Shown here: positions 14,548-14,641 of the stretch, piece after piece
Layout of the letters: each line of letters starts with the position of its first letter
How positions within the stretch are numbered: position 1 is the stretch's first letter
From: a virus
Length of the DNA stretch: 21,155 bases
Reading direction: 5' to 3' (one strand)
IMG/VR virus record: IMGVR_UViG_3300031788_001256
Program-made: the position numbers and the translations under genes
The notes under the pieces: model-generated
Database searches by the model: none
Told to the model about the DNA's origin: nothing
What the model saw: only the letters and a program-made list of their open reading frames with translations

Positions 14548-14641
14548 GGTGGGCAGCACTGGTGTGCGGCTGAGCCTTATAAACTCGGGAAAGCTCCAGA
14601 TTAGAGCGACGGCGTGGGTTCAACTCCCCGGCCCACTACCA
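14548..14641 (+). tRNA. aberrant tRNA-like element (94 nt), possible pseudo- or unusual class-II tRNA; isotype unresolved
   Basis: Acceptor GGTGGGC/GCCCACT, A, CCA (tRNA-Tyr-like ends). TTCAACT T-loop with only a 3-bp clean T-stem. 4-bp D-stem with 4-nt loop. Best anticodon hairpin CTGAG-ccttataaa-CTCGG has a 9-nt loop. Long extra arm GCTC-cagatta-GAGC. Confidence 0.3.

Follow-up and report, generated by a model that had tools for sequence, protein, structure and literature searches.

What is encoded by 94 nucleotides that end like a tRNA, carry a D arm like that of tRNA-Sec and are passed over by tRNA searches at their usual thresholds? The question is raised by a tRNA-like element at positions 14548-14641 (+ strand) of the viral record IMGVR_UViG_3300031788_001256, whose whole analysed stretch of 21,155 nt we call the window. 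A first-pass annotation, made from the letters alone, had described a Tyr-like acceptor, a Sec-like D arm and an expanded anticodon loop, and had offered a decaying pseudo-tRNA, a tRNA-derived regulatory RNA, or a suppressor or frameshift-type tRNA as explanations. We confirm that the tRNA-like element is real. Judged by comparison with its relatives, it is a member of a widespread, well-conserved family of odd-shaped tRNAs in phages and Acidobacteria. With moderate confidence we read it as a working elongator tRNA of conserved non-canonical shape that would decode AUA and is probably a tRNA-Ile. The proposal that this family provides phage tRNA arrays with their AUA/Ile decoder has no precedent in the literature searched.

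A tRNA-like gene of irregular shape

The element and its parts, preceded by the neighbouring tRNA gene, are listed here; read in order, the parts spell the whole element.

14453-14535, + strand: tRNA-Leu(UAA), called by ARAGORN and matched by the Rfam tRNA model at 50.3 bits; it ends 12 nt upstream of the element
14548-14641, + strand: the element, a 94-nt long-variable-arm tRNA gene with anticodon UAU and encoded CCA
14548-14554, + strand: 5' strand of the acceptor stem, GGUGGGC, paired with GCCCACU at 14631-14637; the first pair is G1.U72
14555-14569, + strand: single linker base A8, compact D arm GCAC-UGGU-GUGC, then GG
14570-14588, + strand: anticodon arm with a 5-bp stem CUGAG/CUCGG, the C28.A36 mismatch and the 7-nt loop CUUAUAA at 14576-14582
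14578-14580, + strand: anticodon UAU, which would read AUA; UAU is present in all family-like matches of the anticodon-free pattern
14589-14612, + strand: variable (V) region with GAAA, the stem GCUC/GAGC (14593-14596 with 14604-14607), the loop CAGAUUA at 14597-14603, then GACGG
14613-14630, + strand: T arm with CG, a bulged U at 14615, GGG, the loop UUCAACU at 14619-14625, then CCCCG
14631-14641, + strand: 3' strand of the acceptor stem, GCCCACU, discriminator A73 at 14638 and encoded CCA at 14639-14641

The 7-bp acceptor stem with its G1.U72 pair, A73, the CCA end, the T loop UUCAACU and the 4-bp D stem with a 4-nt loop are in the letters as first described, whereas other parts of that description need correction. 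The anticodon hairpin of this copy can indeed be drawn as a 5-bp stem with a 9-nt loop, but this loop is the canonical 7-nt CUUAUAA plus the flanking C.A mismatch. In Terriglobia copies the flanking, sixth position is a C-G pair that closes a 6-bp stem, so the anticodon loop is one of 7 nt. The extra arm, put at about 25 nt, is present as a 27-nt stretch between the anticodon and T stems with a 4-bp hairpin inside. The T stem, credited with three clean pairs, forms five (C66-G83, G67-C82, G69-C81, G70-C80 and G71-C79) with U68 bulged, and the bulge recurs in relatives. The irregularities of the window copy are therefore a V stem of 4 bp, one T-stem bulge and a C.A mismatch at position 31:39. 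Taken together, the molecule would combine a Sec-like core (an extended anticodon stem, a single linker base and a D arm of 4 bp closed by 4 nt) with a normal 7-nt anticodon loop and a long V arm. Textbooks limit long variable arms in bacteria to the tRNAs for Leu, Ser, Tyr and Sec.

ARAGORN at default settings did not call the element in the window; with the threshold lowered to 80% (-ps80) it called a 94-nt tRNA-Ile(tat) at this place. No Rfam family matched the element at gathering thresholds, the canonical tRNA model RF00005 (29 bits) included. In an E-value search, tRNA-Sec (RF01852) was the sole family to align, and so the best of the tRNA clan, with 27.4 bits against a cut-off of 47; relatives of the element scored 29.1 and 35.3 bits with this model, also under the cut-off. 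For annotation, Rfam thresholds miss the family, and default ARAGORN misses the window copy and many other members. The Sec-like character of the D arm was seen correctly: its sequence, GCACUGGUGUGCGG, is shared with tRNAs that carry a UCA anticodon.

The single-sequence fold energy of the element is ordinary (z = -0.42), so that support for it comes from relatives and not from thermodynamics. We did not take the minimum-free-energy fold as the true structure; it breaks the T loop, and the covarying cloverleaf described below is preferred. Public annotation places 67-aa and 62-aa genes on open reading frames (ORFs) that run across tRNA-Leu and the element (window 14401-14604 and 14459-14647, + strand; L001 9563-9766; L008 2377-2565); these are spurious proteins.

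Relatives of the element and covariation

The contig of the window is phage-like and recurs in many metagenome samples. In seven contigs from different samples that encode an identical 105-aa neighbour protein, the element is 100% identical. The same protein led to one diverged relative, L008, which is 92.1% identical over 2.2 kb. Its copy of the element is 96.8% identical, and five bona fide neighbouring tRNAs range from 94.4 to 98.9%. The three differences all lie at unpaired positions, namely loop position 38, the bulged T-stem base (C in L008) and purine 57 of the T loop. L008 is too close for covariation, and the family was therefore reached only via degenerate DNA patterns derived from the element, for which rough estimates of collection size predict only a few chance matches per scan. 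In viral contigs, anticodon loop plus T loop matched 39 contigs, D arm plus CTTATA matched 78, and D arm plus T loop with the anticodon left free matched 66. This last pattern also matched 27 contigs of species-representative genomes and at least 118 metagenome contigs. In viral contigs, neither the exact 3'-half pattern of the element nor the 105-aa protein found a match.

We aligned 46 distinct sequences of what we call family A, the window copy first (alignment A2). The cloverleaf under test had an acceptor stem of 7 bp, A8, a D stem of 4 bp with a 4-nt loop followed by GG, and an anticodon stem of 5(+1) bp with a 7-nt loop; after four unpaired bases came a V stem of 5 bp with a 7-nt loop, five more unpaired bases and a T stem of 5 bp with a 7-nt loop. 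Paired cells amount to 96.8%, against 30-48% when partners are slid. The compensatory changes that the first-pass annotation had suggested seeking are found in 23 of the 27 pairs. The covariation score is 0.605 against 0.17 in shuffled alignments, and none of 500 shuffles attains the observed values.

All five helices contribute. Every one of the seven acceptor pairs shows compensatory changes, with 99.7% of cells paired; the 1:72 pair is G.U in 36 of the 46 sequences and A-U in 5, and the 4:69 pair, G-C in the window copy, is A-U in 27 and C-G in 15. The D stem is 100% paired and covaries at 2 of its 4 pairs. In the anticodon stem all five pairs covary, and the sixth position is unpaired in 28 sequences and paired (U-A, U.G or C-G) in 18. 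The five V-stem pairs also covary throughout (97.2% of cells paired), as do 4 of the 5 T-stem pairs (98.3%). In 7 of the 46 sequences the T-stem bulge column holds a base (U, C or A), with covariation in both pairs that lie outside it; a bulge with a variable base and covarying flanks is seen in L010, L043, L083, L093 and L104.

Between the helices, A8, G14, G15 and G22 are invariant, as are A73 and CCA (46/46). The family keeps the usual tRNA signatures G53-C61, U55-C56, the D-loop GG and CCA. It further keeps the D arm GCAC-UGGU-GUGC followed by GG, U33-U34-A35-U36-A37, U72, GA.A before the V stem and a near-invariant ACGG after it. The V-arm loop (window 14597-14603; A2 columns 53-59) follows YRGAYNR, mostly as CAGAUGG or CAGAUUA, with an invariant G-A.

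Two alternative drawings of the molecule were considered and rejected. A 9-bp acceptor (9/3) can be drawn in the window by pairing the upstream GU with the AC of ACCA, but two bases, CG, would then separate the T stem from the acceptor strand, and -1:73 and -2:74 are unconserved in relatives. The base at -1 has no consistent pairing to A73, which gives an acceptor stem of 7 bp and, by covariation, a 7/5 acceptor/T branch with A8 invariant and unpaired. The V arm with its GAU loop was also tried as the true anticodon arm, with the UAU arm as an insertion; it is the UAU loop, however, that has U33 and A37, and in the V loop the U33 site is occupied by A or G.

The window copy belongs to this family by several measures. 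All five family helices form in it, and it has the YUUAUAN loop, UAU, A73, CCA, A8, a YGGY D loop, the V-loop G-A and ACGG before the T stem. From A2 we derived a covariance model (R1), with the window copy and L008 in its training set; it gives the window copy 88.8 bits over model positions 1-95, and Terriglobia copies outside the model score 83-88 bits. A profile hidden Markov model built without the window and L008 still finds 14549-14641 at E=3.2e-17 over profile positions 2-95, and its sole other match in the window has E=0.28 (nothing at E<0.1).

These data bear directly on the possibility of a pseudogene, in which a class II tRNA or a tRNA-Sec would be decaying. The failure of default ARAGORN and of the Rfam gathering thresholds to call it, together with the bulged T stem, the C.A mismatch and the 4-bp V stem of the window copy, would fit such decay. 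The same features, the bulge included, nevertheless recur in independent lineages with compensatory changes. Moreover, the element is identical in the seven contigs from different samples, is as conserved as the neighbouring tRNAs in a relative of 92% overall identity, with changes at unpaired positions only, and shares only about 56% identity with the Leu and Ser tRNA genes of the window. We therefore disfavour decay and regard it as very improbable.

In nine of the 46 sequences the T loop starts with A (A2 columns 76-82; for example L058, L060 and L124), seven of them reading AUCGUAA/C and one AUCAUAA. These sequences suggest that the U54-A58 reverse-Hoogsteen pair has been exchanged for A54-U58.

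Distribution in phages and Acidobacteria

Overall, viral contigs with the scaffold number more than 100, as do metagenome contigs; to these come about 22 bacterial contigs from metagenome-assembled genomes (MAGs), mostly from Acidobacteriota/Terriglobia; at least 18 of the 27 genome pattern matches come from this group. Among GenBank phages, blastn with the window region returned tRNA-Leu genes only, and the family-A consensus gave zero matches.

Cultured phages contain only a second form, subfamily B, of 101-104 nt, with a bigger D arm (GCUAAUAUUGG...) and with the anticodon loop, V-arm loop, T arm and 3' end as in family A. It is annotated as tRNA-Ile in Pectobacterium phage PhiM1 (JX290549, 25840-25937) and Vibrio phage vB_ValC_WD615, and is present in unannotated copies in Klebsiella phage KP13-26, Xanthomonas phage Xoo-sp13 and E. 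coli phage ESCO41. Model R1 scores the PhiM1 tRNA at 42.8 bits (E=4.6e-9), with about 63% identity to the window copy. The tRNA-Ile genes of PhiM1 and WD615 share with the window copy the anticodon loop, A73, CCA, R1-U72 and the T arm, and their V loop reads YAGAUAA; they differ from it in a larger, more ordinary D arm and in their greater length. The proposal made here is testable, as cultured carriers exist (PhiM1, ESCO41, KP13-26 and Xoo-sp13).

An invariant UAU anticodon within tRNA arrays

When the anticodon was left free in the search pattern, UAU was recovered in 66 of 66 viral contigs. It was likewise present in all 113 family-like genes among the metagenome matches listed, 109 with the loop YUUAUAN and four with CCUAUAA. 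The D-arm sequence also occurs in UCA-anticodon tRNAs with tRNA-Sec-like ends, in Gemmatimonadaceae and in metagenome contigs; among the matches listed, a few such genes are the only other tRNAs with this D arm. That UAU stays invariant although the anticodon was free indicates a scaffold tied to one anticodon, unlike the allo-tRNAs discussed below. The idea of a UAA suppressor or frameshift tRNA is not borne out, with UAU at positions 34-36 of a conserved C-U-UAU-A-A loop, standard-code ORFs covering 85% of the window and AUA behaving as an ordinary Ile codon.

Most loci that carry the gene are tRNA arrays. Within the window, four tRNA-Ser genes and then tRNA-Leu(UAA), all on the + strand, precede the element, and the tRNA genes of the phage as a whole number more than 25 and are grouped by amino acid. 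Among 129 carrier loci, 59 hold at least 10 tRNAs called by ARAGORN, mostly with one decoder per codon box and U34, and 51 hold a tRNA-Ile(GAU). In Acidobacteriota/Terriglobia MAG contigs the gene stands in arrays of up to 26 tRNA genes, two to three genes from tRNA-Ile(GAU), with the usual order Trp-Cys-[UAU]-Arg-Arg-Ile(GAU)-Asn-Lys... Five such contigs of 92 kb to 1.3 Mb (L138, L148, L150, L152 and L154) have tandem arrays of 21-26 tRNAs, the UAU tRNA among them, whose order is conserved. The same scaffold with an invariant UAU fills the AUA slot in phage and Acidobacterial tRNA arrays.

The window has a G+C content of 44.5%. AUA accounts for 12.4 per 1000 codons, or 20% of Ile codons, and UUA for 14.9 per 1000; from this usage, the adjacent tRNA-Leu(UAA) and the UAU tRNA would serve A-ending codons. 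By codon usage in general, such codons are expected to be rare in G+C-rich hosts.

The meaning of AUA and the likely amino acid

To which amino acid does AUA correspond in the carriers? ORFs of at least 80 aa from the 129 carrier loci were compared all against all, keeping pairs of 30-85% identity and excluding subject AUA codons. Residues aligned to AUA were I in 30.6%, V in 24.6% and L in 17.7% of cases, close to those aligned to AUU (I 38.4%, V 22.7%, L 16.0%). Positions with the Leu codons UUA and CUA were matched by L in 61-63%, and those with the Ser codon UCA by S in 45.5%. Expressed as Cramer's V, the difference of AUA from AUU+AUC was 0.08, from Leu codons 0.36 and from Val codons 0.23. 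Since the AUA profile is like that of AUU and AUC, AUA means something Ile-like in carrier phages. The structural genes of PhiM1, with 6.9 AUA per 1000 codons, were uninformative.

The acceptor end of the family favours the same amino acid, as far as sequence likeness can tell. In the UAU family, 41 of 46 sequences carry G.U or A-U at 1:72, and A73 is constant. The tRNA-Ile(GAU) genes of the same arrays have R1-U72 (A-U or G.U) in 20 of 35, also always with A73, whereas the class II isotypes look different: G1-C72 in 81 of 95 Leu genes and in 33 of 35 Tyr genes, and mostly G73 in Ser genes. The acceptor end would hence be that of a tRNA-Ile rather than Tyr-like, as it had first been called. 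Within the Ile-identity set (PMC9976931), A73 and the loop bases A35, U36, A37 and A38 are present in the window copy.

A missense decoder would reconcile the anticodon with the body in another way. An anticodon-blind leucyl-tRNA synthetase (LeuRS), or seryl-tRNA synthetase (SerRS) as for tRNA-Sec, would charge the element, and AUA would partly become Leu or Ser. The long V arm, A73 and the tRNA-Sec-like body fit this idea, as does the place of the window element directly after tRNA-Leu(UAA) in a phage that groups tRNA genes by amino acid (four Ser, four Arg), and there are precedents in nev-tRNAs (PMC3333845) and Ser-charged allo-tRNAs (PMC5389517). The AUA substitution profile of the carriers, however, is Ile-like and not Leu- or Ser-like, R1-U72 sets the family apart from Leu, Tyr and Ser genes of the same arrays, and A73 instead of G73 speaks against SerRS. 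Anticodon-blind charging would also predict many anticodons, as in allo-tRNAs, whereas this scaffold has UAU only. E. coli LeuRS uses D-loop tertiary elements of tRNA-Leu, and the 4-nt D loop of the element lacks them. We consider missense decoding improbable.

As an AUA-decoding tRNA-Ile, the element would be made and used as follows. With only 12 nt between them, it would be co-transcribed with tRNA-Leu(UAA); RNase P would cut the 5' end, and trimming would stop at the encoded CCA on the 3' side. Charging would probably fall to the isoleucyl-tRNA synthetase (IleRS) of the host, via A73, the weak R1-U72 pair and U34-A35-U36-A37-A38. With its 7/5 acceptor/T branch of 12 bp, it is expected to be compatible with EF-Tu. 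On the ribosome, we infer, it would supply AUA decoding to an AT-richer phage without the lysidine-modified tRNA-Ile2 of the host.

Several points weigh against this proposal. The codon profile gives the meaning of AUA; it does not show which tRNA reads it. The E. coli IleRS determinants G16, D20 and D21 have no place in the 4-nt D loop UGGU (PMC9976931). The E. coli set of these bases and the pairs C4-G69, U12-A23 and C29-G41 (PMC9976931) is not that of the element, whose 4:69 pair is G-C. Without modification, U34 serves IleRS only weakly as a determinant, and it could misread AUG (PMC11685878, PMC3575796). The window copy itself has C.A at 31:39 and a bulged T stem, and the conserved V-arm loop is unexplained by a model of AUA decoding. 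Finally, charging and AUA decoding are deduced, for any family member, from indirect tests.

The strongest competing view is that of a tRNA-shaped RNA that is not used in translation but acts as a decoy or regulator, for example as bait for tRNA-targeting toxins or anticodon nucleases, or as a partner of a toxin-antitoxin system or mobile element. A non-translational role for allo-tRNA(UAU) was proposed by Mukai et al. (PMC5389517), and in the same study six allo-tRNA(UAU) variants converted to CUA were inactive as amber suppressors in E. coli, two of them toxic, which also counts against AUA decoding. The irregular core, with every Rfam model under its cut-off, agrees with such a role; so do the tRNA-related or RNA-repair-related genes nearby (PTH2, a PNKP-like fragment and RlaP), and the invariant V-loop G-A suggests a protein partner. 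Yet features of translation are under selection in the family: the 12-bp acceptor/T branch, G53-C61, the UUCRA T loop, U33, A37 and the encoded CCA. UAU is not only invariant but is exactly the anticodon missing where the arrays otherwise provide one decoder for every box. In small phages such as PhiM1, a tRNA of this kind is the only one annotated and lies between capsid and tail genes. The negative suppressor assay altered the anticodon, which is the main IleRS determinant; with anticodon-dependent charging by IleRS, the CUA-converted variants would be expected to fail in an amber assay anyway. A non-translational role therefore seems unlikely to us, though it deserves more weight than the other alternatives.

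The invariant G-A, as part of a GAU-like V-arm loop, is the most interesting loose end. In subfamily B, position 33 is the only one at which the V loop YAGAUAA departs from CUGAUAA, the anticodon loop of tRNA-Ile(GAU). We speculate that the element is a natural class-II-shaped Ile tRNA, a TilS-independent AUA decoder of phage and Acidobacterial arrays, in which the V loop (mostly GAU) would be a second, anticodon-like recognition element; we hold this extended proposal to be doubtful. The V-arm loop might recruit IleRS or a U34-modifying enzyme, or limit AUG misreading. No co-located synthetase or modification enzyme was present in the gene lists retrieved for carriers.

Comparison with known tRNAs

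The family is probably the allo-tRNA(UAU) group of Mukai et al. (2017; Nucleic Acids Res 45:2776, PMC5389517), whose members came up as false positives when tRNA-Sec was searched for; we draw this likeness by description only. That group has a Sec-like D arm, a long V arm and a cloverleaf slightly unlike the standard allo-tRNA (PMC5389517). Shared with the present family are sub-threshold tRNA-Sec matches, the D-arm tetraloop, the long V arm, in part the extended anticodon stem, UAU, and abundance in Acidobacteria and in soil and peat data. Allo-tRNAs, in contrast, are defined by a 12-bp branch of 8/4 or 9/3, where the present family is 7/5 by covariation, and they have 35 anticodons and mostly G73 or U73 (PMC5389517), where this scaffold has UAU only and always A73. 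Their D stem is long (5-6 bp), and that of the element is 4 bp with a tetraloop; its sixth anticodon pair is C.A (C-G in Terriglobia). The published allo-tRNA(UAU) genes were linked to toxin-antitoxin loci and transposons and were suggested to be non-translated, whereas the genes described here stand in phage and chromosomal tRNA arrays. Since the element lacks an 8/4 or 9/3 branch and the comparison is by description, we file it in the family defined here and not as an allo-tRNA in the strict sense. If the proposed decoding is correct, the published suggestion that allo-tRNA(UAU) is non-translated needs revision.

Bacterial tRNA-Sec (RF01852) has in common with the element the 4-nt D loop, the D-arm sequence of some UCA genes, the long V arm and a 6-position anticodon stem, and a T-stem bulge is known in minor tRNA-Sec and selC* species (A51a, PMC5389517). 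It differs by UCA, G73, an 8/5 branch (13 bp) and a 6-bp D stem, against UAU, A73, 7/5 (12 bp) and a 4-bp D stem.

The job proposed for the element is done elsewhere by the AUA readers tRNA-Ile2 (lysidine, CAU) and tRNA-Ile(UAU) of Mycoplasma mobile, lactobacilli and a B. subtilis suppressor (PMC3575796, PMC3919564). These share A73 with the element and, in the UAU type, the N-U-UAU-A-A loop; they are class I tRNAs with a variable loop of 4-5 nt and a normal D loop, unlike the long V arm and Sec-like core seen here. The nematode nev-tRNA-Ile(UAU) (Hamashima et al. 2012, PMC3333845) shares the class II shape and UAU but is a functional analogue only. It is eukaryotic, derived from tRNA-Leu, charged with Leu and without sequence relation to the element, for which the AUA profile and the acceptor end point to Ile.

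We know of no tRNA-Ile of long-V-arm, Sec-like shape that has been shown to be charged. If the element proves to be one, it would widen the known structural range of tRNA-Ile.

Neighbouring genes and other observations

The four tRNA-Ser isoacceptors (GCU, GGA, CGA, UGA) lie at window 12711-13658 (+ strand), with an HNH/endonuclease VII-like ORF (12833-13282) between the first and second; tRNA-Ser(CGA), at 13476-13564, is an ARAGORN call that is not among the Rfam matches at gathering thresholds. Four Arg(NCG) genes are grouped downstream in the same phage. About 4.2 kb past the end of the window, at L165 17281-17351, ARAGORN reports a 'tRNA-???' with a 2-base anticodon (ta), which may be another irregular tRNA-like gene of this phage. 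A scan for promoters and terminators around the tRNA cluster gave nothing specific.

Three genes among the tRNA genes hint at conflict with host tRNA-targeting defences: a PTH2 peptidyl-tRNA hydrolase (5.4e-12) at window 13989-14264 (+), a PNKP phosphatase-domain fragment (2.8e-10) at 17126-17404 (+), and an RlaP nucleotidyltransferase just downstream of the window (L001 16026-16859).

The large ORFs of the window are all on the + strand. They include an NAD-dependent DNA ligase (594-2690), an OmpA-domain protein (5294-7225), a weak permease match (7247-8119) and an ABC ATPase (9055-9921); a 4Fe-4S ferredoxin is called at the corresponding place in related contigs. An 817-826-aa protein at 18107-20587 (+) resembles PF11978, the shoulder domain of the major vault protein (3.6e-26), and the vault repeat PF17795 (1.8e-8). 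Such a vault-like protein is unusual for a phage-like contig, and it is identical in many metagenome contigs.

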